Notes: generated from the sequence alone by a model not told the origin. A stretch of 64,000 bases of DNA from Acidobacteriaceae bacterium (GCA_030037635.1 JASHQH010000321.1:10571-74570), one strand, 5' to 3'; positions 1,652 to 54,835 are shown, counted from the first letter of the stretch. Translations and numbers: made by a program.

Positions 1652-1789
1652 GCGTCCGCCTGTGACACCTGATCCCTGAAACCGGCCCCCTGTATAATTC
1701 CCCCGCAGACGGAATCCCGCTCGCCTGTGCGTTCGTCAGAGTTGCGGCCGGTCCGTTTGATTCCAGAAAATCATTCAGGAGTTCTCCGC

Positions 1790-3184
1790 ATGCACGCGGT
1801 CCTACGCCGTCTTTCGGTTTTCGTCTCCCCCGTCGTCACTGCGATTTTCCTCCTCGCCGCCGAAGCCCATGCCGCGCCTGTCCTGATGATCTCCATCGAC
1901 GGGCTCAAGCCCGAATACATCACCCACGCCGACGAGCACGGCATGAAGATCCCCTACCTGCGCACGCTCGTTGCCAACGGCACGTATGCTGAGGGCGTGG
2001 TCGGCATCTGGCCCACGGTCACCTACCCCAGCCACACCACGCTGCTCACCGGTGTGTGGCCCGCTCAGCACGGCATCTATGCCAACCTGGTCTTCGATCC
2101 CTTCCAACATTTCTCCGGCGCGTGGTACTGGTACGCATCGCAAATCCGCGTGCCCACGCTGTGGCAGGCTGCGCACAAGGCCGGACTGCACACCGCCAGC
2201 GTGGGCTGGCCGGTCAGCGTTGGCGCCACCGGCGTGGATTACCTGATCCCGGAGTACTGGCGCGGGCCGAACGCCGACTACTCCCCGGATCCCGACGACC
2301 AGTTGCTGATGGCCTCACTGGCCCGACCCGACACGCTGATCCAGCAACTTGAACCCGCCGCCGGCCCTTACATGAACGGCAACGACACCAGCATCGGCGG
2401 CGATGAGGTGAAAACCCGCTATACGCTGGAGATTCTGCGCCGCTACAAGCCGGCGCTCGTCACTCTGCACCTCAGCTCGCTCGATGCGGCGCAGCATGCG
2501 CATGGGCCGTTCAGCGCCGAGGCCGATGCCGATCTCGAGGCCCTTGACGGCATGGTCGCGCGCCTGACGCGCCAGGAGTTTGCCTTGAACCCCGCAGCCG
2601 TGCTGGTCATCGTCTCTGATCACGGCTTCATGAACATCACGCATTTTGTGAATCTGGCCTACGCGTTCGTGAAGGCAGGATTCATTCAGGCCACCTTCAA
2701 TCCCGGCTCAAGAGTCCCCTCAGTGACTTCGTGGAAGGCCGAGCCGTGGAGCGCCGGCGGCATGGCCGCTATCATGCTGCATGATCCCGGCGATGCGGCG
2801 ACTGAGCAGCAGGTGCGTGCGTTCCTTATGAAGCTTGCAGCTGACCCATCGAACGGCATTGCGCAGGTCCTCGACCGCCAGGAAATCACCCGGCGCGGCG
2901 CATTCCCCGATGCAGCATTCCTCGTCGTCTTCAAGCCCGGCTATTACTTCGGCACCGACACATCGGGCACTCTGGTCACGCCCGTTCCCGGAACGCGCGG
3001 CTCCCATGGCTTCTCGCCGGAGTATCCTGAGATGCGCTCTTCCTTCTTTGCGTTAGGGGCCGGCATTGCCCATCATCGCGACCTGGGTGTAGTGGATATG
3101 CGCCAGATTGCGCCCACCGTGGCCCACATCCTGCACGCGCCGATGCCCACGGCAAAGGCCGAGCCGCTGCACGTGGCGCCTTGA
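1790..3184 (+). CDS. Secreted nucleotide pyrophosphatase/phosphodiesterase (type I phosphodiesterase, alkaline-phosphatase superfamily)
   Basis: MISIDGLKPEYI and TVTYPSHTTLLTGVWPAQHGI metal/nucleophile motifs, VSDHGF; signal peptide from Met at 1790 (track ORF starts 1727). Confidence 0.8.
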   Translation: MHAVLRRLSVFVSPVVTAIFLLAAEAHAAPVLMISIDGLKPEYITHADEHGMKIPYLRTLVANGTYAEGVVGIWPTVTYPSHTTLLTGVWPAQHGIYANLVFDPFQHFSGAWYWYASQIRVPTLWQAAHKAGLHTASVGWPVSVGATGVDYLIPEYWRGPNADYSPDPDDQLLMASLARPDTLIQQLEPAAGPYMNGNDTSIGGDEVKTRYTLEILRRYKPALVTLHLSSLDAAQHAHGPFSAEADADLEALDGMVARLTRQEFALNPAAVLVIVSDHGFMNITHFVNLAYAFVKAGFIQATFNPGSRVPSVTSWKAEPWSAGGMAAIMLHDPGDAATEQQVRAFLMKLAADPSNGIAQVLDRQEITRRGAFPDAAFLVVFKPGYYFGTDTSGTLVTPVPGTRGSHGFSPEYPEMRSSFFALGAGIAHHRDLGVVDMRQIAPTVAHILHAPMPTAKAEPLHVAP

Positions 3185-3262
3185 TTGAGGGCTGCGGCGC
3201 CTCTTTGGTCCGCGGCTCCCGTTTACCCCAAACCCGGCCTTGGAATAGGCCACAAAACGCAA

Positions 3263-3289
3263 ACGGCGATTCCATCAGGGAATCGCCGT
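3263..3289. terminator. Hairpin between convergent genes (possible bidirectional terminator)
   Basis: Perfect 11-bp stem ACGGCGATTCC / GGAATCGCCGT, loop ATCAG, then CGGCCTTCTTGTTG. Confidence 0.45.
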
Positions 3290-3296
3290 CGGCCTT

Positions 3297-3390
3297 CTTG
3301 TTGCCTCAGTCCCTTGTTCCCTGCCGGGGCCCCGGGCGTGCGATTTCTGCTCGCTGGGGGTGGCTTGCCCTCAGTCCCTTGTTTCCTGCC
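3297..3390 (+). repeat. Dispersed repeat copy 1: CCCT-array arms flanking a GC-rich stem-loop core (B module)
   Basis: TTGCCTCAGTCCCTTGTTCCCTGCC (3301-3325) and TTGCCCTCAGTCCCTTGTTTCCTGCC (3365-3390) flank GGGGCCCCGGGCGTGCGATTTCTGCTCGCTGGGGGTGG; ends 3 nt from the stop codon at 3394. Confidence 0.8.
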
Positions 3391-25990: not shown

Positions 25991-26195
25991 TGCCCCATCC
26001 TTTCCGCGGCTGCGGAATCCCCCGAACCCGGGGTCCCCGGCGAGCGCTCTCTGCTCGCTGGGGTGGAGGGACAGGTCTTCGTTCGTGGGGTGGCTTCATC
26101 GCGGAAAGGGCGGGGTCCACTGACCCTCCCTCGCTCGCTGTCTTCTGTTCCCTGTTCCCTGTGTCTAACTCCGCTAACACCGCTGCCCTCCTGCG
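25991..26195 (+). repeat. Composite nested repeat (A arms, internal B module, CCCT array, 9-mer D module)
   Basis: CCCCATCCTTTCCGCG (25993-26008) pairs with CGCGGAAAGGGCGGGG (26100-26115); B core 26028-26076; CTGTCTTCTGTTCCCTGTTCCCTG 26138-26165; AACTCCGCTAACACCGCT 26167-26184. Confidence 0.8.
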
Positions 26196-31811: not shown

Positions 31812-31825
31812 TCGTCCCATGCCGT

Positions 31826-31890
31826 TCCTCGCTCCCTGTCTTCTGTTCCCTGTTGCCTGTTCCCTGTTCCCTCGTTCTCTGTCCTTCCCG
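31826..31890 (+). repeat. CCCT-array repeat copy
   Basis: CTGTCTT CTGTTCC CTGTTGC CTGTTCC CTGTTCC CTCGTTCT CTGTCCTT; starts 14 nt after a stop codon. Confidence 0.8.
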
Positions 31891-32256: not shown

Positions 32257-32340
32257 GCCCTATCCTTTCCGCTGTCTCATCGCGAAAAGGGTGGGATCGG
32301 CCCTAACGCCGCAAACTCCGCCAACCCCGCTAACTCCGCT
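32257..32340 (+). repeat. Repeat modules A (imperfect hairpin) plus D (9-mer triplet)
   Basis: CCCTATCCTTTCCGC...GCGAAAAGGGTGGG; AACTCCGCC AACCCCGCT AACTCCGCT. Confidence 0.65.
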
Positions 32341-32978: not shown

Positions 32979-33070
32979 TTCTTTGCTCTCTGTTTTCTGT
33001 TCCCTGTTCCCTGTTGCCTGTTGCCTGTCTTCTTGTTCCCTCGGTCCCTTGGTCCCTTGTTCCCTGTCTT
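32979..33070 (+). repeat. CCCT-array repeat copy filling the whole intergenic spacer
   Basis: CTGTTTT CTGTTCC CTGTTCC CTGTTGC CTGTTGC CTGTCTT CTTGTTCC CTCGGTCC CTTGGTCC CTTGTTCC CTGTCTT, then T and ATG 33072. Confidence 0.85.
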
Positions 33071-38585: not shown

Positions 38586-38680
38586 CCCCTAATCCCTTAG
38601 CCCCTGTCTTCTGTTCCCTGTTCCCTGTTCCCTGTTCCCTGTTGCCTGTTGCCTGTTGCCCGTTGTCCTCAAGTCCTCAC
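38586..38680 (+). repeat. CCCT-array repeat, best copy
   Basis: CTGTCTT (CTGTTCC)x4 (CTGTTGC)x3 CCGTTGT at 38604-38666. Confidence 0.9.
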
Positions 38681-43960: not shown

Positions 43961-44070
43961 CCTCGGTCCCTTGGTCCCTGTTCCCTCCTGCCTGTTCCCT
44001 CGTCTCCGCCCCCTGCCGGGCCCTCCGGTGAGCGATCTTTGCCTGCTGCGGCAGCTTGCTCCCTGTTTTT
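43961..44070 (+). repeat. CCCT array plus B-module repeat copy
   Basis: CTCGGTCC CTTGGTCC CTGTTCC CTCCTGC CTGTTCC CTCGTCT then CCCTGCCGGGCCCTCCGGTGAGCGATCTTTGCCTGCTG; starts 3 nt after the cheR stop. Confidence 0.8.
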
Positions 44071-45329: not shown

Positions 45330-45986
45330 ATGGCAATCGACACCAAATCCGGCTTCGACGTCAATGCCTTCCTTGCCACTTCCGGATCGGGCCGCAAAAT
45401 CATCTCGCTCAAAAAGGCTGAGGTCTTCTTCGCGCAGGGCGATCCAGCCGACTGCGTCTTCTATCTCCACAAGGGCCGCGTCAAAATCTCCGTCATCTCC
45501 GCCGCGGGCAAGGAAGCCACCATCCGCCTCGTCTCCGCCCGTGACTTCTTCGGCGAAAAAGCCATGGAGCCCCAGCCCACGGTGCGCATCACCCGCGCCA
45601 CCGCACTCACTGACTGCACCGCGCTGCGCATCACGCGCTCTGAGTTCGTTCGCGTCATGCGCGAAGAACAGGCCTTCTCCTATCTCTTCTCGTCTTTTCT
45701 GCTCGCCTGCAGCATGCGCGCCCAGGCCGACCTCGTCGATCAGCTCTTCAATCGCGCGGAAAAGCGCCTTGCCCGCCTGCTCCTGCTCCTCGCCGAAAGC
45801 ACTCGCCCCGGCGAAGACGAAACCCTCATTCCGCAAATCTCGCAGGAAGCCCTCGCCAGCATGATCGGCAGCACCCGCCCCCGCGTCAACGCCTTCATGA
45901 ACCGCTTCCGCAAGCTCGGCTTCGTCGAGTACGACAGCCGCATCCGCGTCCACAAATCCCTGCTCAACGTCTTCTTGCGCGACTGA
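45330..45986 (+). CDS. Crp/Fnr-family transcriptional regulator
   Basis: cNMP-binding beta-roll (FFAQGDPADCVFYLHKGRVK) plus C-terminal HTH (SQEALASMIGSTRPRVNAFMNRF). Confidence 0.88.
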   Translation: MAIDTKSGFDVNAFLATSGSGRKIISLKKAEVFFAQGDPADCVFYLHKGRVKISVISAAGKEATIRLVSARDFFGEKAMEPQPTVRITRATALTDCTALRITRSEFVRVMREEQAFSYLFSSFLLACSMRAQADLVDQLFNRAEKRLARLLLLLAESTRPGEDETLIPQISQEALASMIGSTRPRVNAFMNRFRKLGFVEYDSRIRVHKSLLNVFLRD

Positions 45987-48900
45987 TCATTTTTTGCGCT
46001 CTTCGCTCTGCGCCCGAGCGCGTTTTTCCTGAACCCTCGCCCGCGGCCGATTGGCCCGACGTATTCGGCACCGGCGCGGCGTCCGGAATCTCCAACCCCG
46101 CCTTGCGCAAGCCGTCAATGGCGTGCTCGACGAGTTCGGCATCGAAGAATTTGCCGTATTCCAGGCGCGCCGCAGCCGCGAAATCGGGCCGGAGGGCCAG
46201 AAGATCCTGCACCGCCTTTTGCGCCTCCTCGCGCCGGCCGAGCTGGCCGAGTGCGGCGGCTTTTGCGGCCGGCATATGGAAATAGCCCGGCGTATTCGCG
46301 CGAGCGATGATCTGAAGTGCCTCCTCGTATCTGCCCTGCCGATAGGCTCTCCAAAAAACAGGTGAATAGAAAGCGCCGGGAAGGTTGGCATTGCGCTGCA
46401 TGGCCAGTTCCACCATCTGGCATCCCCGATCCCATTCACCCGAGACCGCAAACCCCTGACCCAGATAGGCGAGGATCGAACTGTCGAGCGGATTGAGAGC
46501 CAGGGCTTTTTCTGACTCGGCGCGGAACCCAACCGTTTCCTTGCGGAAGAAGTGAACGGTTGCCAGAGCGAAGTGGCACAAAGCATTGGCGGGTGCCAGA
46601 TCGACGGCACGCTGTGCCGCCGCCAGCGCGCGGTCCAGAAGGTTGCGGCCGGCATCGAATCCCGAAACGAACCCGTTGCGATACATGAACGCGAGCATGG
46701 CCCAGCTGTCGGCGTGGTCCGGAAACTGGTGGACGGCGTGCTCAAGCCTCCTGACGGCCAGGGAATACTCTTCAGGAGTGACGCGGAAGTAGTAGCCGAA
46801 CGCGCTCAGCACGGCTTCATAGGCGCTGAGTTCATCGTCGCTCTTGTTGCGCAGCAACTCGCTCATGCTGCGTGGCAGCACGCCATAAGGGTCGCCAACC
46901 GTGGAGACGATGCGGGGAACCAGATCGTCCTGCACTTCGAAGACCGAGTCCGGGCTGAAGGTGTGCTCGTAGGTCTCGGCCCAGAGGTGGGTTCCGGAGG
47001 TCGTGTCGGTCAGTTGCACCGCCAGACGCAGCTTGCTTCCTGCCTGACGCAGATTGCCCTCTAGCACATATCGCGCGCCAAGTTCTTTGCCGATGGCGCG
47101 AACCTCGCCCGGCTCACTGGAATATTTCGCAGTTGAGCCGCGGGCGACGACACGCAAGTAGGAAAACCGCGAGAAACCGGTGATGACTTCGTCGGAGATT
47201 CCCTCGGCGAGGGACTTCAGGTCTTCATTGCTCCCCGCGTATTTGAAGGGCAAAACAGCCACCCAGAATCCCTCGGCGGCGCGACTTTCGCCGGAAGGCG
47301 CGGGGCTGGAGGAAACACTGGAGGACAGTGCCGGCGCGACCGCAGCGCCCGCTTCCTGAACCTTCAGCCCCGCCTTGCGCAAGCCGTCCATCAGGCGCTC
47401 CACGAGTTCCGCATCGTGATAGTCCAGCTTGAATTCCTTGCCCGCAGCCGCGGCAAAATCGGGCCGCAGCGCCAGCAGCTCCTTCAGCGCCTTCTGCGCC
47501 GGCTCGCGCATGCCAAGCTGCCCATACACTGCCGCCAGAAAGGCGTGAGCCAGAAAATATCCCGGCAGATTGATTTTGAGCGCAATGGTCAAAGCGTCCT
47601 GATATTCGCCTTTGCGGTACGCATTCAAGAACTGGACGAACCAGTACCAACCCGGATGGTGGGGATTCAGTCGCAGCGCAGACTCCGCAAGCGCGCAGCC
47701 ACGCTCCCAATCGCCTGATTGGGCCATCAGAAGCCCCACGTGCGCCAGGTTCGATCCGTCCATCGGATTCAGTTCGATGGCCCGTTCCGCTGGCGCACGA
47801 AATGCCAGCAGATCCTTTTGCAAATACAGCACCGTCGCCAGCGCGCTGTAACCAAGGTTGTTGGTGGGCGCCACATCGATGCTGCGCCGCGCCGCCGCCA
47901 GCGCGCGCCCCAGCGGATCCGGTTGCGCGTTGAATCCGAGCGCATGTTCGTGCCAATAGATCGTCGAAAGCATCGCCCAGATCTCACCCTGGTCGGGCGC
48001 ACTACGCGCAGCCCGTTCCAGAATTTCTCTCACCTGGGCATGCTCTTCCGGCGTAATCCGTTCGAAGTAACTGAAGGCGCGCAGCACGGCTTCATACGGG
48101 CTCAACTGGTCGTCAGCCTTGCGCCGCCGCAGCGCGTCGCAGATGCTGTGCGGCAGAATTCCGTAGTAATCGGCGGCCGTGGAAACGATGCGCGGCACCA
48201 GGTCGTCCTGCAAATCGAAGATCGCCTCCGGGTTGAACGATCGCTCATAGTTCTCTGCCCACAAGTGGGTCCCGGTCGTTGTGTCCGTCAGTTGCACCGC
48301 CAGCCGCAGCTTGTTCCCCGCCTGGCGGATGCTGCCTTCCATCACGTAGCGCGCGCCCAGCTCCTTCCCGATCGCCCTCACATCGCCCGATTCGCTCGAG
48401 TACCTCGACGTCGATCCCCGCGCCACCACCCGCAAATACGAAAAACGCGCCAGCCCCGTCACCACCTCGTCGGAGATGCCTTCGGCGAGCGACTTCAGTT
48501 CTTCATTGCTTCCCGTGTATTTGAACGGCAGCACCGCAACCCAGAAACCCTCGGCAGCGCGCGATGCGCCCGAATCGGCTGCTGCGACGGCCCGCGAAGC
48601 GGTGTTGCCGGCATGATGCGTCCGCGTGCCCGCACGCCCCAATTCGCGGAATTCGTTGCCCACGTCCCGCGCTGTCTGCACGCGGTGCCGCGGATCTTTC
48701 TCCAGGCACCGGCGGATCACGCGCGCCAGGTCGGCGGGCAAGTCAGGCCGGACATCGGTCACCGCTGCCGGCTGATCGCGCAAAATCGACGAGATCAGCT
48801 CCGCTGAAGAGGCGCCTTCGAACGGCCGCGATCCCGTCGCCATCTCGTGCAGCAGCACGCCCAGTGAAAAAATATCGGTGCGATGGTCCAGCGGCCGCCC

Positions 48901-49509
48901 CGAAACCTGTTCGGGCGACATGTAGGCCGGCGTGCCCATCACCATCCCCGCTTGCGTCAGTCCGGCAGAAGTCGTCCCCAGCGACGTCACTGTCGTGGCA
49001 TTCGCATTCGCCGCGCCCAAGTCCTTGGCCAGACCAAAATCCAGCACCTTCACCCGGCCCTCGTTCGTCACCATCACGTTGGCGGGCTTCAGATCGCGAT
49101 GCACGATCCCTTTTTCATGCGCCGCCGCCAGCGCTTCGGCCAGCACGCTCGCAATCTCCACAATGCGCTCCAGCGCCATCCCGCCCGCCGGAACCAGTTG
49201 GTCCAGCGGTTGCCCCTCAATCAGCTCCATGGTGATGAATTGCAGCTCTTCTGTTTCTTCAACCGAGTAAATGGTCACCACGTTGGGATGATTAAGCGCC
49301 GCCACAGCCCGGGCTTCGCGCTGAAATCGCGCCAGCCGGTCCGCGTCGCGCGCCATATCCGCGGGCAGCACCTTCAGCGCCACCTCGCGTCCCAGGTTCG
49401 TATCGGTCGCGCGGTACACCTCTCCCATCCCACCCGCGCCGATCACTGTGCTGATCCGGTAGTGGGAGATGGTGCGCCCCGCAAGACTGGGCCTTTCCGC
49501 GGCTTCCAC
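45964..49509 (-). CDS. Ser/Thr protein kinase with two tandem ~400-aa sensor modules (N-terminal subdomain plus TPR-like subdomain)
   Basis: Kinase motifs GAGGMGEVY, ALK, HRDLKPANV, DFG, GTPAYMSPE; GTG start; 3' end overlaps the crp-family gene by 23 nt. Confidence 0.9.
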   Translation of the reverse strand: MEAAERPSLAGRTISHYRISTVIGAGGMGEVYRATDTNLGREVALKVLPADMARDADRLARFQREARAVAALNHPNVVTIYSVEETEELQFITMELIEGQPLDQLVPAGGMALERIVEIASVLAEALAAAHEKGIVHRDLKPANVMVTNEGRVKVLDFGLAKDLGAANANATTVTSLGTTSAGLTQAGMVMGTPAYMSPEQVSGRPLDHRTDIFSLGVLLHEMATGSRPFEGASSAELISSILRDQPAAVTDVRPDLPADLARVIRRCLEKDPRHRVQTARDVGNEFRELGRAGTRTHHAGNTASRAVAAADSGASRAAEGFWVAVLPFKYTGSNEELKSLAEGISDEVVTGLARFSYLRVVARGSTSRYSSESGDVRAIGKELGARYVMEGSIRQAGNKLRLAVQLTDTTTGTHLWAENYERSFNPEAIFDLQDDLVPRIVSTAADYYGILPHSICDALRRRKADDQLSPYEAVLRAFSYFERITPEEHAQVREILERAARSAPDQGEIWAMLSTIYWHEHALGFNAQPDPLGRALAAARRSIDVAPTNNLGYSALATVLYLQKDLLAFRAPAERAIELNPMDGSNLAHVGLLMAQSGDWERGCALAESALRLNPHHPGWYWFVQFLNAYRKGEYQDALTIALKINLPGYFLAHAFLAAVYGQLGMREPAQKALKELLALRPDFAAAAGKEFKLDYHDAELVERLMDGLRKAGLKVQEAGAAVAPALSSSVSSSPAPSGESRAAEGFWVAVLPFKYAGSNEDLKSLAEGISDEVITGFSRFSYLRVVARGSTAKYSSEPGEVRAIGKELGARYVLEGNLRQAGSKLRLAVQLTDTTSGTHLWAETYEHTFSPDSVFEVQDDLVPRIVSTVGDPYGVLPRSMSELLRNKSDDELSAYEAVLSAFGYYFRVTPEEYSLAVRRLEHAVHQFPDHADSWAMLAFMYRNGFVSGFDAGRNLLDRALAAAQRAVDLAPANALCHFALATVHFFRKETVGFRAESEKALALNPLDSSILAYLGQGFAVSGEWDRGCQMVELAMQRNANLPGAFYSPVFWRAYRQGRYEEALQIIARANTPGYFHMPAAKAAALGQLGRREEAQKAVQDLLALRPDFAAAARLEYGKFFDAELVEHAIDGLRKAGLEIPDAAPVPNTSGQSAAGEGSGKTRSGAERRAQKMISRARRR
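46087..48561 (-). repeat. Intragenic tandem duplication of a ~1.2-kb module (48561-47359 and 47283-46087)
   Basis: Both modules start RAAEGFWVAVLPFKY.GSNE.LKSLAEGISDEV and end ALRPDFAAAA...DGLRKAGL. Confidence 0.85.
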
Positions 49510-49734: not shown

Positions 49735-52452
49735 CTAACTCGCCGGCTCGTTCCCCAGCAGCCGCTCCACTTCCTCCTGCAGCCGCGCCGTGATCGCGGC
49801 TTCGCTGTCCTGCGGCCTGAACTGGATGGCTTCGCCGATGTGCACTTCGAGAATGCCCGAGCGGAACCAGCGCCGCTGCCCCGTCTTCAGTTCCCCCAGC
49901 CCCCGGATGGCCGTAGGCACCACGGGCACGCCGCTTTGCTTGGCCAGCAGCCCGATGCCCGCTCTGAACCGCGCCAGCTTGCCTGACGCCGAGCGCGTGC
50001 CCTCGGGAAAGACCAGCACGTTGTAGCCGTGATCCATGGCCTTGCCCGCGTGCGCGAAGCTCGACTGGAAATCGCGCAGTTGTGGCAAAGGAAAAACATT
50101 GAAGCAGAGCGTGACCAGCCAGTAAGCCGGCGGGCCGAAGAAGTAAAAGCCCTTGTGTCCCGGCGGCCAGTCGGGATTGCGCCCGTGCCGGAAGTCCTCA
50201 AGCATCTCTCCCGACATGGCGATGGCCAGGTGCCGGCGCCAGGGCCCGGCCAGCGCGTATTGAATCAGCGCGCCGTCGTACGCAGTCACGTGATTGCCGA
50301 CCAGAAGCAGCGGACCCTCCGGCAGCGGCTTCGGCGGTCCCACAACGCGAGGCGCAGCGAGAATCCAGGCCAGTGGGCGCAGAATCGTCTCGAAGAACGC
50401 CGCTCGAAACCACTGGAACGGCTTCCACCACGGCCAGGTGGGATAGTGATAACGGTAGCGCGGCTGCGCGGCAATCCCTGTTCTCTGTTCCCTGTTGCCT
50501 GTTACCTGTTCCCTCGTCCCTGGTCCCTCAGTCCCTGCCTTCTCGGTCCCTTGATCCCTGCCGGGGCCCCCAGCGGGCGATATTTGCCCGCTGGGCTGGC
50601 TCGGTCCCTCGGTCCCTGTCGTTACCACCCTCCGCAAATCCCCCAGCGTCTGCACTTCTTCCAGCAGCCCGGTGCCCGAGACCACTCCCAGCCGATCCTC
50701 GATCGCCGCCGCCAGTTGCACCCGTCCCAGGCTGTCCAAGTGTAGGTCTTCGTCCAGGCGGAGCTCGTCGCCCACACCGGGATTGCTTTCGCCGGTGATC
50801 TGCGCAATCAGCGTCAGCAGCCAATCCGCCGAAGGGCCGCCGTTCGTCGAGGCATGGGGCGAGCCGCTGGTGGGCGTAGCGGCCACTGCCTGCACTCGCT
50901 GCAGCCACGCCGCCACGGGTTTCCGTTTCACCTTGCCGGTTGACGTGCGGGGCAGATCGGGTTCCGGCCACAGCACCCACCTGCTGATGCGCTGGAACTC
51001 CGGCAGCTGGGCGTTGGCGCGCCGGATCGCCGCCGCAATCTGCTCGCCCGTCCCGCGTGTTGCCAGCGCGGCGCACGGCTCCGGACCCGTGGGCGTCTCC
51101 ATGGCCACCACCGCGCAAGCTGCGATCTCCGGCTGCTCCTCCAGCGCCGCTTCAATGTCCTCCGGATGTACGTTGAGCCCCGCCGCGGTGACAATCACCT
51201 CGCTCTTCCGGCCCAGAAATTTCAGCTCCCCCGACTCCTGCCGCTCGGCAAGGTCCCCCGTCGCCAGCCACTCGTCCTCTCGTGGGCGCAGCGCGCCGCC
51301 CTGCCAGGTGGCCCCCGAGATCATCTCGCCCCGAACCAGCACTTCCCCGTCCGCGGCCAGCTTCACCTCCCGGCCCGCCATCGGCTTGCCGATGGTGCCC
51401 GCCGCCACGTGGAAGGGATGGTTCAGCGTGATCAGGGCGGTGGTCTCCGTCATGCCGTAGCCCTGGATGAGAACAAACCCCAGAGCGTTCCAGAACTGCT
51501 CCAGCAGGCCGGGCAAGGCGCCCCCGCCGCTCACGAAAGCCCAGAACTTGAACCCGAACTCGCCATGCACCGCGCGGAAACGCCACCACCGCAGCCAGGG
51601 ATTGAGCTTGCGCGACGCCCCCGCCCGCTCCTCAAGTCCCGCGTGGTTCGACTCTAAATGAGACTTCAGCAGCGCCAGCACCCGTGGAACAGTCGCCAGA
51701 ACCGAGACGCGCTCGCCGTGGATCAGCTCGATGAGGCGCGGCGCGGCCAACCGGCTCTCGAAGTGAAGCTCGGCCGTCAGGATGGGCGGAATCCAAAGTC
51801 CCATCGTCTGCCCGAAAACGTGACTCAGCGGCAGCGTATGCAGAATGCGCAGCGGATGCACCAGCCATCGATAGCGCAGGTAGGGCTTGGCGCCGTCTTC
51901 GATGGGCCCCACGCTGGCCAGCACGTTCCCGTGCGTGATGACAATGCCCTTGGGATCGCCGGTGGTGCCCGAGGTGAAGAGAATCTCAAGCGGAGACTCG
52001 CGGGTGAGGCCGGAGATGGGGCCCATTTCCGCAGCCGGCAAATCGTCAAGCCAGTCTTCCAAGGCCAGAGCAGGAATCGCCGGCCCACTCCGCGCCGCGG
52101 CCAGCTTGTCCAACAGATGCATATCCCCCACGGCCAGCTTGGGATTGACGTCGCCAGCCACGCGGGCCGCAAAATCCGCCGATCCGGCCGCATCGAGCGG
52201 AACGCTGAGCACTCCGCGCAGCAGGCATCCATAAAAGGCGGCAATCCACTCCGCGCTGTTTTCGCCCCAAAGCAGCACCCGATCGCCTGCCCCAATCTGC
52301 CGCTCCGCTAAATAGGCGGCAAAACGGCCGGCCAGCCGCGCCAGCTCCCCGTAAGTCGTCACGCGGCGGCGATTTCCCTGATACCGCACCACCGCGATAT
52401 CACGGTCGAAGCGCCGAAAATCGTCGATGAGCGAAGCCAGGTGATCGCGCAT
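49735..52452 (-). CDS. Tri-domain fusion: AMP-dependent acyl ligase, acyl-carrier domain, lysophospholipid (PlsC-type) acyltransferase
   Basis: LFTSGTTGDPKG, GYGMTET, PRTSTGKVKR; carrier LHLDSLGRVQL (Ser codon 50731-50733); acyltransferase NHVTAYD (about 50273-50295) and FPEGTRS. Confidence 0.85.
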   Translation of the reverse strand: MRDHLASLIDDFRRFDRDIAVVRYQGNRRRVTTYGELARLAGRFAAYLAERQIGAGDRVLLWGENSAEWIAAFYGCLLRGVLSVPLDAAGSADFAARVAGDVNPKLAVGDMHLLDKLAAARSGPAIPALALEDWLDDLPAAEMGPISGLTRESPLEILFTSGTTGDPKGIVITHGNVLASVGPIEDGAKPYLRYRWLVHPLRILHTLPLSHVFGQTMGLWIPPILTAELHFESRLAAPRLIELIHGERVSVLATVPRVLALLKSHLESNHAGLEERAGASRKLNPWLRWWRFRAVHGEFGFKFWAFVSGGGALPGLLEQFWNALGFVLIQGYGMTETTALITLNHPFHVAAGTIGKPMAGREVKLAADGEVLVRGEMISGATWQGGALRPREDEWLATGDLAERQESGELKFLGRKSEVIVTAAGLNVHPEDIEAALEEQPEIAACAVVAMETPTGPEPCAALATRGTGEQIAAAIRRANAQLPEFQRISRWVLWPEPDLPRTSTGKVKRKPVAAWLQRVQAVAATPTSGSPHASTNGGPSADWLLTLIAQITGESNPGVGDELRLDEDLHLDSLGRVQLAAAIEDRLGVVSGTGLLEEVQTLGDLRRVVTTGTEGPSQPSGQISPAGGPGRDQGTEKAGTEGPGTREQVTGNREQRTGIAAQPRYRYHYPTWPWWKPFQWFRAAFFETILRPLAWILAAPRVVGPPKPLPEGPLLLVGNHVTAYDGALIQYALAGPWRRHLAIAMSGEMLEDFRHGRNPDWPPGHKGFYFFGPPAYWLVTLCFNVFPLPQLRDFQSSFAHAGKAMDHGYNVLVFPEGTRSASGKLARFRAGIGLLAKQSGVPVVPTAIRGLGELKTGQRRWFRSGILEVHIGEAIQFRPQDSEAAITARLQEEVERLLGNEPAS
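50474..50619 (+). repeat. Complete CCCT-array/B-module repeat copy lying in frame inside the 905-aa CDS
   Basis: CTGTTCT CTGTTCC CTGTTGC CTGTTAC CTGTTCC CTCGTCC CTGGTCC CTCAGTCC...; perfect inverted repeat CCCAGCGGGC (50569-50578) / GCCCGCTGGG (50586-50595). Confidence 0.85.
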
Positions 52453-52674: not shown

Positions 52675-53376
52675 ATGAAAAATCTCTTCATCGGCCTTTA
52701 CGTCCTGGTAACCATCGCCCTCATGTTCTGGGGCTACTACCAGGCAATCTACGTGGCGCCCAACGATGCCATGCAGGGCGAAATCTTTCGCATTATTTAC
52801 TACCACGTGCCGTCGGCATCGGTCGCGTTTCTGTTCTTCGCCATCAGCCTCGTCGGTTCCGTCGGGTACCTGGCTTCGCGCCGCGAACATCCCGAACGCG
52901 CGCAGAAATTCGACGCCTGGGCCTTGTCCGGCGCTGAGGTAGGCGTGGTCTTCTGCACCGTGGTGCTTAGCACCGGGCCCATCTGGGCGCGTCGCGCCTG
53001 GGGCATCTGGTGGACCTGGGACGCGCGCCTCACCACCACGCTGGTTCTTTGGCTCATCTACGTCAGCTACTTGCTTTTACGGCGTTTTGCCGCCGGCCCC
53101 CAGGTGCAGACCCTGGCCGCCGTCCTGGGTATCTTTGGCGCGCTCGATGTGCCCATTGTCTACATGTCGAACCGCTGGTGGCGCACCCAGCATCCCGCGC
53201 CTGTGTTTGGCGGCGCAGCGGGTTCGGGCATGGATCCATCCATGGTGGGCGCGCTCATGTGGAATATGCTCGCCTGGTTCGCCTGGGGCCTCTTCATTTT
53301 GTCCTTGCGTTACCGGGTGGAGCGGCAGCACCAGAGGATTTTGGCCGCGGAGGCCCAAGCGGCGCTCAACGCCTGA
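52675..53376 (+). CDS. ccmC: Cytochrome c maturation heme exporter CcmC
   Basis: WGIWWTWDARLT tryptophan-rich (WWD) motif, 6 TM. Confidence 0.92.
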   Translation: MKNLFIGLYVLVTIALMFWGYYQAIYVAPNDAMQGEIFRIIYYHVPSASVAFLFFAISLVGSVGYLASRREHPERAQKFDAWALSGAEVGVVFCTVVLSTGPIWARRAWGIWWTWDARLTTTLVLWLIYVSYLLLRRFAAGPQVQTLAAVLGIFGALDVPIVYMSNRWWRTQHPAPVFGGAAGSGMDPSMVGALMWNMLAWFAWGLFILSLRYRVERQHQRILAAEAQAALNA

Positions 53377-53420
53377 AGGATCACACAGGACCGGAAATCA
53401 ACCGCAGCGACGAGGCAGAC

Positions 53421-53552
53421 ATGGATAGAGTAGCGATTCTCGATCACCAGTTCAGGGTTGCGGCGTACGTCGTCACCTGGCTCATTCAATTGGGCTACCT
53501 GGCCTGGCTGGGGCTCCGCTGGCGATCGCAAAAGCGGCAATCTCAGCGGTAG
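53421..53552 (+). CDS. CcmD-like single-TM small protein (43 aa)
   Basis: Directly after ccmC; MDRVAILDHQFRVAAYVVTWLIQLGYLAWLGLRWRSQKR (TM plus basic tail); hidden in track ORF 53010..53552. Confidence 0.5.
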   Translation: MDRVAILDHQFRVAAYVVTWLIQLGYLAWLGLRWRSQKRQSQR

Positions 53553-53624
53553 CGCAGCACGGCCGCCCGCCGATTCCGCTTTGGCGAGCCGCGCCTCTTG
53601 AACGGTACGCCGATCTTCGCCTAA

Positions 53625-53695
53625 ATCGGAGGGAGCAGCGGCCTTCAGGCCGCTGAATCCCGCGCAAACGATCTTGCGGCTTTAGCCGCGGGCCC
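53625..53695 (+). repeat. Repeat family E, copy 1 (double hairpin)
   Basis: ATCGGAGGGAGCAGCGGCCTTCAGGCCGCTGAATCCCGCGCAAACGATCTTGCGGCTTTAGCCGCGGGCCC; stem CAGCGGCC/GGCCGCTG. Confidence 0.8.
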
Positions 53696-53764
53696 AAACC
53701 GGCCCTCTACCGGAAATTGCCCTTCCCCCCTCCAGCCGGTAGACTGAGGGTTCGAGGGCCAGAC

Positions 53765-54835
53765 ATGTTAGTGGTCATGAAGGCGCAGGCCACGCCGGAG
53801 CAAATCCAGGCGGTCTGCGATCATATCGAACAATTAGGGTTCCGCGCCCACCCCCTCCCGGGAGCGCAGCGCACCGCCATCGGCATCACCGGCAACCAGG
53901 GCGAGGCCGACCGCGGCAACCTCGAATCGCTCCCCGGCGTCGCCGAGGTCATCCGCGTCTCCAAAGCCTACAAACTGGCCAGCCGCGACGTGAAAGAAGA
54001 AGACACCGTCATCCGCTTCGCCCATTCCACCGCCACCATCGGCGGACACGATCTGGCCATCGTCGCCGGACCCTGCTCCATCGAGAGCCGCGAGCAGGCC
54101 TTCGCCATCGCCGCTCACGTGGCTGCAGCCGGCGCGCAGTTTTTCCGCGGCGGCGCCTACAAGCCGCGTACCTCCCCATACGCATTTCAGGGCCTGGGCC
54201 TTGAAGCTCTGCGCATCATGGCCGAGATTCGCGACAAGTTCGGGCTCCGCATCGTCACCGAAGCGCTCGATACCGAAACCCTGGAGGTGGTAGCCGAGTG
54301 GGCCGACGTGGTGCAGATCGGCGCCCGCAACATGCAGAACTTTTCTCTGCTCAAGAAAGCCGGACGTCTGCGCCAGCCGGTGCTCATCAAGCGCGGCATG
54401 AGCGCCACCCTCGAAGAGTTCCTCATGGCCGCCGAATACGTAATGAGCGAGGGCAATTACGAAGTCATCCTTTGCGAGCGCGGCGTGCGCACCTTTTCTG
54501 ATCACGCCCGCAACACCCTCGATCTCAGCATCGTTCCCGCCTTGCAGCACGTCAGCCATCTACCCATCCTCATCGACCCCAGCCATGGGACCGGCCGTCG
54601 CGACAGCGTTCTGCCCATGGCGCGAGCAGCAGTAGCCTCTGGAGCCGACGGCGTGATGGTCGAGGTGCACGACCATCCCGAAAAGGCGCTCTCCGACGGC
54701 CCGCAGTCCATCTACCCGGCGCAGTTCGCCACCATGATGGAAGAGCTGGAACGCATGGCGCCCATCGTGGGCCGGCATCTGCCCCGAGCCGTGCCCGCCG
54801 CCGATGCCGCTCTGGCCAAAGCCAGTGGACAGTGA
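53765..54835 (+). CDS. 3-deoxy-7-phosphoheptulonate (DAHP) synthase, type I-beta, with N-terminal ferredoxin-like regulatory domain
   Basis: N-terminal MLVVMKAQATPEQIQAV...; catalytic GPCSIES, KPRTSPYAFQGLG, DPSHGTGRR. Confidence 0.92.
   Translation: MLVVMKAQATPEQIQAVCDHIEQLGFRAHPLPGAQRTAIGITGNQGEADRGNLESLPGVAEVIRVSKAYKLASRDVKEEDTVIRFAHSTATIGGHDLAIVAGPCSIESREQAFAIAAHVAAAGAQFFRGGAYKPRTSPYAFQGLGLEALRIMAEIRDKFGLRIVTEALDTETLEVVAEWADVVQIGARNMQNFSLLKKAGRLRQPVLIKRGMSATLEEFLMAAEYVMSEGNYEVILCERGVRTFSDHARNTLDLSIVPALQHVSHLPILIDPSHGTGRRDSVLPMARAAVASGADGVMVEVHDHPEKALSDGPQSIYPAQFATMMEELERMAPIVGRHLPRAVPAADAALAKASGQ

Follow-up and report, generated by a model that had tools for sequence, protein, structure and literature searches.

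How does a copy of a dispersed, mostly intergenic repeat come to lie in frame within a multidomain enzyme gene, and does it act there as a linker, a switch or a bridge between once separate genes? This question is raised by a stretch of 64,000 nucleotides (nt) from an Acidobacteriaceae bacterium (GCA_030037635.1 JASHQH010000321.1:10571-74570), called the window below, with positions counted from its first letter. Its minus strand encodes a protein of 905 amino acids (aa) that combines an AMP-dependent ligase, a carrier protein and an acyltransferase, and a composite element of tandem units and a hairpin core occupies positions 50474-50619 within this gene. The original prediction offered two readings of the element, a repeat insertion exapted as a flexible linker or two ancestral genes fused by a stop-free element, and considered a slippage switch conceivable. 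Our analysis indicates that it is most likely a resident, vertically inherited and tolerated repeat copy, lodged in a linker that already joined the carrier to the acyltransferase domain and is itself under weak constraint. The features of the host gene and of the element are as follows.

49735-52452, minus strand: gene for the AMP-dependent ligase/carrier protein/PlsC-type acyltransferase, 905 aa (open reading frame, ORF, and Pfam)
50474-50555, plus strand: array of imperfect CCCT+N3-5 units of 7-8 nt (direct reading and Tandem Repeats Finder, TRF)
50511-50535, minus strand: canonical predicted G-quadruplex (G4) motif (G3N4-5)x4, GGGACTGAGGGACCAGGGACGAGGG (regular expression scan)
50556-50601, plus strand: core CCCTGCCGGGGCCCCCAGCGGGCGATATTTGCCCGCTGGGCTGGCT (exact pattern match)
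50569-50595, plus strand: hairpin with perfect 10-bp arms (50569-50578 and 50586-50595) and the 7-nt loop GATATTT
50602-50619, plus strand: short distal array, 2.2 copies of CTCGGTCC (TRF 50600-50617)

On the plus strand, the array reads CTGTTCT CTGTTCC CTGTTGC CTGTTAC CTGTTCC CTCGTCC CTGGTCC CTCAGTCC ... CTTGATCC. TRF assigned to positions 50475-50528 a period of 7, 7.7 copies and 82% matches and reported further rows at 50505-50537 and 50510-50536; no adjacent units in 50474-50555 are identical. The core consists of CCCT followed by a 42-nt module at 50560-50601 (GCCGGGG...GGCTGGCT), and the short array (TCGGTCCCTCGGTCCCTG) has a period of 8 with 2.2 copies and 100% matches. Direct reading bore out both the perfect 10-bp inverted repeat and the claim that module order and polarity are the same as in an intergenic copy at 3297-3390. 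Folding around 50569-50595, which had been proposed as a check, produced a hairpin on both strands (z = -2.1 on the plus and -3.2 on the minus strand relative to shuffled sequences). The predicted G4 motif has four or more G-tracts in a row, separated by loops of 1-7 nt, and lies on the coding, non-template strand, hence also in the mRNA. A search of the window with an nhmmer profile of family copies (including two from the window) ranked the coding copy at the top of four window copies (46 bits, E 7e-12). The whole window was without any Rfam family at the gathering score, and around the element Rfam returned only chance miRNA and snoRNA matches with E above 1.

The whole element is translated, as aa 612-660 of the protein: the short distal array corresponds to about aa 612-617 (TEGP..), the core to about aa 618-632 (PSQPSGQISPAGGPG) and the long array to about aa 633-660 (DQGTEKAGTEGPGTREQVTGNREQRTG). 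Across it the minus-strand ORF reads ...TEGPSQPSGQISPAGGPGRDQGTEKAGTEGPGTREQVTGNREQRTG... without a stop codon, and stop codons are absent from the element in all frames of both strands. The consensus core is likewise stop-free in every frame, as are the arrays, and the 42-nt core module (GCC...GGCT) equals 14 codons. A depletion of stop codons (on each strand, the copies hold 0-3 stop triplets where 9-13 would be expected) was considered as evidence and rejected, because all copies have a single stop-free consensus in common, and roughly half of individual 46-nt sequences of such composition would lack a stop.

According to Pfam, the protein comprises the domains AMP-binding (aa 14-375), AMP-binding_C (418-514), PP-binding (543-606) and Acyltransferase (709-849). 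The repeat thus lies between domains, since PP-binding ends at aa 606 and Acyltransferase begins at aa 709. Ser574 of DSLG and N720-H721 of NHVTAYD are at the codons stated; ORF, domains and motif codons agree with the original prediction of an in-frame, stop-free element translated between the carrier and acyltransferase domains. In an AlphaFold2 model (46-sequence alignment, mean predicted local distance difference test score, pLDDT, of 77, predicted template modeling score of 0.73), aa 614-662 have a pLDDT below 50 and form no secondary structure; the segment is predicted to be disordered, with confident domains on either side, and the N-terminal hydrophobic helix of the acyltransferase begins soon after it. 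Read from the domains alone, the protein's function is suggested to be the activation of a fatty acyl group and its transfer onto a lipid acceptor. It resembles Aas-type acyl-ACP synthetase/lysophospholipid acyltransferases in joining an AMP-forming acyl ligase to a PlsC-family acyltransferase, but differs from them by its reversed domain order and embedded carrier domain. In NCBIfam no model scored above its cut-off, and the Aas-type model NF006386 gave 89 bits against a cut-off of 1221, so that the protein is not a member.

To what family does the element belong? A metagenome scan with the pattern CCCTGCCGGGGCYCCNNNCGNGCGAT found the core in 74 stretches, 56 of them unique, which all align gap-free over 50 nt; the window match is therefore not a chance one. 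The common anatomy is a set of CCCT+N3-5 units, CCCT, GCCGGGGCCCC, an 11-bp stem with the 7-nt loop GATNNNT, GGGGTGGCT and further units, and the unit type is mostly alike on both sides of one core. The stem covaries: 96.7% of the cells pair, a figure that falls to about 47% once the 3' partners are slid. Pair 21-33 is A-U in 29, G-C in 18 and C-G in 1 copy, and pair 18-36 is G-C in 34, U-A in 5 and A-U in 2; the scan pattern fixed columns 1-15, 19-20 and 22-26 and left columns 16-18, column 21 and the whole 3' arm free. At pair 17-37, 32 of 49 distinct copies have G.U, which pairs on the CCCT strand only. None of the 74 metagenome matches has the loop variant of the window copy, and the exact host protein is not on record. 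Arrays of CCCT units with a variable remainder of 3-5 nt occur genus-wide; TRF on the window and 160 loci found tandem 7-nt units with an invariant G3/C3 tract (CCCTGTT, CCCTGAT, CCCTAGT, CCCTTGTT), and the opposite strand reads (GGG-N4-5)n, a G-quadruplex consensus. The family is apparently an undescribed repeat of Terracidiphilus-like Acidobacteriaceae: in the literature we found no paper linking Acidobacteria with heptanucleotide, repetitive extragenic palindromic (REP) or G4 repeats, which is absence of evidence only. Two loci (L088:900-1007 and L139:12873-12992) carry two tandem cores with one unit between them, which suggests that a core plus one unit can itself duplicate. Many intergenic metagenome copies end in CCCTG(T/C)(C/T)TTT, a short T-run.

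Of the 56 unique cores, approximately 21 are situated within ORFs, in three reading frames (SHPSGQKSPAGGPGREQ; ATPASKDRSPGAPAGTEG; PPQQAQIARWGPRQG) and with the AGGG strand coding in 20; these counts come from a crude gene caller based on third-position GC content and are approximate. Pfam analysis of five hosts found that the insert is bordered on either side, or spanned, by domains in a P-type ATPase (within the HAD/N-domain), UvrC, LarC and a UvrD-like helicase, and that the sole Pfam domain match of a GT9 heptosyltransferase lies downstream of it. The position of the insert relative to the fold was taken from AlphaFold2 for the ligase host and from domain boundaries for the other hosts. 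In Lhr-type helicases, arrays with or without cores occupy three recurrent sites, namely, after RLMLE, after GGVEVQG and at AIVASAG/HPP. The Lhr sites (L036, L037, L038, L049, L057, L059, L095, L102, L139) differ in content between species and hold plain arrays, arrays plus a core or two tandem cores (L139); in L059 a reverse-oriented array is read as SPLVPSPLVP (SPLVPSPLVPSPLVP).

The orthologues of the nickel-insertion protein LarC in L098 and L099 carry the same core at aa ~65-95 in different frames, a 20-nt upstream indel being offset by an 8-nt unit indel downstream. The frame switch implies that the core peptide is not conserved, only the reading frame of the host. The LarC insert adjoins a His-rich region. 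A conserved peptide motif was rejected as the origin of the core, which is read in three frames and is mostly intergenic. A 47-aa profile of the translated core yielded 186 candidates but none with E <= 1, the profile being too short for the database of 5.8 billion sequences. More widely, the analysis reveals a composite family of arrays and hairpin that is indifferent to the reading frame and often lies within genes.

What is the history of the linker in the ligase gene? The host protein has more than 6,500 homologues, the closest of which have 72-84% identity and 885-967 aa and, where the source is named, come from Terracidiphilus or Acidobacteriaceae. Independent orthologue assemblies give the same single ORF, and an assembly or frameshift artefact was therefore rejected. 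A search of 1.84 billion cluster representatives retrieved full-length homologues, with identities from 63% to about 31%, that share the three-domain composition; at 52% identity or less their linkers are short (about 10-15 aa) or unrelated. The three-domain architecture is older than the repeat.

In the sample of orthologues, 80 species-representative genome loci (Terracidiphilus-like metagenome-assembled genomes, MAGs), the linkers are hypervariable, spanning 43-106 aa. Many are built of the words GTREQ, GNREQ, GSGIRDQ and GLGTK/GLGTE, which are translated reverse-complement units (three GGAACAG read GTGNREQ, three GGATCAG read GSGIRDQ), and others are unrelated and Ala/Pro-rich. The translated core PS.P.GQ.SPAGGPGR.QG.EK is also found in P0002, P0004, P0012, P0015, P0054, P0070 and P0107. 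The nearest orthologue locus, L001 (JASHSS010000854.1; 92% amino acid and ~90% nucleotide identity), has the whole linker including the core in common with the window, and the two cores differ at 4 of 42 positions, which is approximately the divergence of the whole gene. L001 is labelled 'Bryobacteraceae bacterium', whereas the other close relatives are Terracidiphilus or Acidobacteriaceae, probably a binning or taxonomy error of that MAG. The linker cores of the window, L001, L081 (P0004), L089 and L157 (P0015) have the loop variant GATRTTT/GAAGTTT, which is unseen in other copies and indicates their common descent. Cores are gained or lost as discrete blocks: the filled linker of P0015 and the empty linker of P0043 differ by one block of 42-45 nt at a unit boundary, with near-identical flanks. 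Between the window and L001 there are only two indels in the whole protein, both of them in the linker and both of whole units (5 and 8 aa, or 15 and 24 nt). The corresponding dN/dS ratio is 0.47 in the linker (53 codons) and 0.09 in the rest of the gene. The unit type of the linker matched the intergenic unit type of the same genome in 2 cases among just 5 informative loci.

The orthologue alignment that had been suggested as a check for absent or shorter linkers thus found them. As regards exaptation as a flexible linker, a genuine repeat copy is translated here as a predicted disordered linker; the exaptation itself is weakly supported, and the data speak for tolerance rather than need, because linkers range from 43 to 106 aa, are unrelated and Ala/Pro-rich in many orthologues, measure about 10-15 aa in distant homologues and evolve under relaxed constraint. 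We propose that in-frame copies, being translated because the core equals 14 codons and both core and arrays are stop-free, would add a hydrophilic, disordered peptide rich in Gly, Thr, Glu, Gln, Arg and Pro that merely lengthens the tether. The DNA itself would evolve as a repeat, gaining and losing whole units and cores, and purifying selection on the downstream acyltransferase domain would keep frame-preserving combinations only. The G-tracts on the coding strand would follow from a family-wide rule that places them on the G-rich strand marked by GC skew.

Several observations weigh against this reading. Core-bearing linkers are scattered on the neighbor-joining tree of the orthologues, and the core of L128 is of a different subfamily and lies in a clade otherwise without cores; the history is therefore not purely vertical, and L128 points to at least one independent gain or gene conversion. 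The linker dS (0.19, from only 7 changes) is below that of the rest of the gene (0.365). Among the window copies, the hairpin is best preserved in the coding one, the two intergenic composite copies being degraded, and over the family coding stems are as intact as intergenic ones (10.05 versus 9.75 Watson-Crick pairs), in a comparison biased by the ascertainment of copies through an exact 5'-arm pattern. Together, the low dS, the hairpin and the intact coding stems make it conceivable that the coding copy is subject to constraint at the nucleotide level or to gene conversion.

The low linker dS and the better preservation of the coding copy relative to the intergenic window copies also favor the idea that the element is kept for a function of the nucleic acid, such as a slowing of ribosomes for the co-translational folding or membrane insertion of the acyltransferase, a mark for mRNA processing or an effect on transcription or replication. 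A perfect stem that folds better than shuffled sequences on both strands, the predicted G4 motif on the coding strand, the covariation across the family and the hydrophobic acyltransferase helix soon after the linker would all fit such a role. We nevertheless consider it unlikely, since orthologous linker cores decay without compensation (a G.T pair in L001, mismatches in P0004 and P0015), many orthologues lack the core or any repeat-derived sequence, the conserved G.U at 17-37 pairs on the CCCT strand only, which is antisense to the host mRNA, and the dS estimate depends on 7 substitutions.

Still less probable, at the level of an outside chance, is a phase-variation switch in which slippage of one 7/8-nt unit reversibly uncouples the acyltransferase from the ligase and carrier domains. 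In the contingency loci of Haemophilus and Neisseria, long perfect tracts are situated close to the gene's 5' end, and closely related isolates show ON and OFF alleles. The element resembles them as a tandem repeat in an ORF with a unit length that is not a multiple of 3, and coding arrays do change their unit number over evolution (the window versus L001; LarC of L098 versus L099, +20 and +8 nt); at two intergenic loci, same-locus contigs differ by 58 and 4 nt. Here, however, the imperfect units have no identical neighbors and form no long perfect tract, the array lies mid-gene and is always in frame, and all coding length differences observed are multiples of 3. Both catalytic motifs, of the ligase and of the acyltransferase, are in one uninterrupted frame in 80 of the 80 species representatives, and the 120 closest homologues among the matches listed are all near full length (885-967 aa). 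Coding same-locus metagenome contigs, which come from other species and serve as a surrogate for the window's own population, differ by 0 nt at seven loci and by 24 nt at one, and there is no internal start codon that could rescue a separate acyltransferase. The fusion of a ligase-carrier gene with an acyltransferase gene by insertion of the element has next to no probability: being free of stop codons in all frames of both strands, the element could in principle bridge two ORFs, but the same single ORF with three domains exists in the 31-63% identity homologues and in close orthologues without a repeat-derived linker, so that the fusion predates the repeat. A tolerated, inherited copy in a pre-existing linker, probably a neutral passenger, is thus the reading that we retain.

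How does the family compare with known systems? Rickettsia palindromic elements (RPE) are selfish palindromic repeats that reside in frame within protein-coding genes (PMC10969869). Both families consist of dispersed short repeats with a palindromic or hairpin core, occur between genes and often in unrelated housekeeping ORFs, are translated while leaving the host protein intact and lie at loops or linkers. RPE are the nearest analogue for the in-frame behavior, in an analogy of kind only, sequence homology not being expected. Unlike RPE, which are about 100-150 bp long and occur in Rickettsia, the family described here belongs to free-living Acidobacteriota and has a 42-nt core flanked by 7/8-nt tandem units. 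Furthermore, its core is read in all three frames, with orthologues switching frame, whereas RPE families are described as encoding a conserved peptide, and its orientation follows GC skew.

For the 7-nt arrays, the heptamers of cyanobacterial short tandemly repeated repetitive (STRR) sequences are a related comparison. In Xanthomonas and Nostoc, G-quadruplex-forming heptamers of the types GGGAATC and GGGGA(C/T)T have been reported (Rehm et al. 2015, PMC4692102). The acidobacterial arrays resemble these in their 7-nt units with a constant G3 (C3) tract and a variable remainder, their length from few to more than 10 units, their mostly intergenic location, their fit to the G4 consensus and their positional preferences near genes (in the window, 49 and 40 nt upstream or 4 and 7 nt downstream). 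They differ in their units (GGGAACA, GGGATCA, GGGACCGA and others), in following GC skew, in being common on the coding strand of ORFs and in carrying a hairpin core module; the G4 here is a predicted one.

REP sequences and the bacterial interspersed mosaic elements that they form, which are associated with REP-associated tyrosine transposases (RAYT, or TnpA-REP), are short, GC-rich imperfect palindromes present in many copies, often just past stop codons. REPs have a GTAG-like 5' tetranucleotide and are essentially extragenic, and inverted pairs of them flank the Y1-transposase (RAYT) gene. The core is likewise a short, GC-rich imperfect palindrome, and its conserved non-Watson-Crick stem position suggests a single-stranded form of one strand. 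By contrast, it is frequently intragenic. A GTAG-like tetranucleotide was not found by the palindrome, the conserved flanks being CCCTGCCGGGG and GGGGTGGCT; inverted core pairs were absent from 1.6 Mb of fetched fragments, in which all multi-copy sources were co-oriented; and none of 9 neighboring proteins scanned was a transposase. With respect to miniature inverted-repeat transposable elements, the palindrome is internal and not terminal, and the block that distinguishes P0015 from P0043 is without a clear duplication, though its flanks are themselves repeats.

The orientation of the repeats follows GC skew. GC skew of the window is strongly negative at -0.096, with each 8-kb block between -0.04 and -0.14, and the G-rich strand of all 8 arrays, 4 cores and 9 G4 motifs of the window is the minus strand (a regular expression search found 9 G4 motifs on the minus and 0 on the plus strand). 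Over all fetched loci, some of them duplicates that inflate the p-value, the G-rich strand of the arrays follows the local skew in 93 of 112 cases. G-tracts on the skew-marked G-rich strand mean that in-gene copies there are read as peptides of Gly, Thr, Asn, Arg, Glu and Gln. Intergenic arrays in the window either precede plus-strand genes by 40 and 49 nt, in antisense, or follow minus-strand stop codons at distances of 4 and 7 nt, in sense. Among the intergenic cores, 10 of 34 are no more than ~25 nt from the stop codon of a G-rich-strand gene, two of these abutting an ORF end (crude gene calls). Regarding a terminator role, no copy in the window was flagged as a canonical intrinsic terminator, and the window contained 18 predicted sites as compared with 14.4 +/- 4.3 in shuffled sequence. 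The other copies in the window are listed below.

3297-3390, plus strand: intergenic composite copy (array-core-array) with a degraded stem; core at 3319-3367, 39.9 bits
26028-26066, plus strand: weak fourth core-like copy (nhmmer 25.3 bits, E 2e-5)
26145-26162, plus strand: array-only copy, 49 nt upstream of a plus-strand gene
31822-31882, plus strand: array-only copy, intergenic
32997-33067, plus strand: array-only copy of ~9.6 units, intergenic, with a G4 motif on the minus strand
38611-38665, plus strand: array-only copy of 7-8 near-perfect CTGTTCC/CTGTTGC units, 40 nt upstream of a plus-strand gene
43961-44070, plus strand: intergenic composite copy with a degraded core; core at 44011-44059, 25.9 bits
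59685-59750, plus strand: array-only copy, 7 nt past the stop codon of a minus-strand gene

Convergent genes flank both composite copies: that at 3297-3390 sits 4 nt beyond the stop codon of a minus-strand outer membrane protein (OMP) gene, and that at 43961-44070 separates a cheR-like from an ompA-like gene. Both have the module order and polarity of the coding copy, and their cores, at 3319 and 44011, have degraded stems that fold no better than shuffled sequence. On the CCCT strand, window arrays (26140, 31830, 38602, 59715) tend to start with CCCTGTCTTCTGTTCC. A second tandem repeat, with the 9-nt units CTAACTCCG and CTAACACCG, is found at 26165-26184, where it directly adjoins a CCCT array, and at 32303-32340, where it does not; possibly it forms a further module in this landscape of intergenic repeats. 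At 3262-3290, a short distance upstream of the composite copy at 3297, lies a separate perfect hairpin (GGCGATTCC-ATCA-GGGAATCGCC) that resembles a 3'-end structure belonging to the plus-strand phosphodiesterase gene at 1727-3184.

As to the neighborhood of the host gene, upstream synteny is kept (52675-54835; L081, L157-L159), with a CcmC-like cytochrome c assembly protein and a DAHP synthase, and the downstream neighborhood is variable across the orthologous loci, at which no lipid-biosynthesis neighbors that would clarify the role of the enzyme were seen. The neighboring gene at 45964-49509 (minus strand) encodes a 1181-aa Ser/Thr kinase with an internal tandem duplication: its module of ~430 aa (AAEGFWVAVLPFKY.GSNE.LKSLAEGISDEV..., followed by TPR repeats) is present twice, at high identity.

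As to the inferred manner in which copies spread, it is conceivable, though we regard this as doubtful, that the CCCT arrays and the 42-nt hairpin constitute an active and as yet undescribed repeat system in peatland Acidobacteriaceae. Such a system would target arrays or spread by gene conversion, and would colonize 3' untranslated regions in addition to loops and linkers in essential proteins. If so, its hosts would include Lhr, UvrC, UvrD, LarC, CopA-type ATPases and the ligase-carrier-acyltransferase protein, and a stop-free core of a whole number of codons would be a natural engine of linker and loop insertion. The strand-locked G-tracts and the G.U hairpin would then reflect a single-stranded DNA or RNA intermediate tied to the direction of replication.

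Taken together, the element in the ligase gene is most likely a passenger, neither a switch nor the agent of a domain fusion. A dispersed non-coding repeat family that also resides inside housekeeping genes and is translated there is thereby found in abundant, poorly studied soil bacteria, the Acidobacteria of peat soil; such behavior has so far been best documented for the palindromic elements of Rickettsia, which are obligate intracellular bacteria. Segments of the 'GTREQ/GSGIRDQ/GLGTK' and 'SHPSGQKSPAGGPGR' types in acidobacterial proteins are repeat DNA and not conserved motifs, and should be masked in homology searches, domain prediction and phylogeny. Unlike what was reported for Xanthomonas and Nostoc, essential genes here tolerate G4-type tracts on their coding strand, and the cost of such structures becomes testable. 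The length of linkers and loops in such proteins evolves through DNA-level repeat dynamics with compensation of the reading frame.

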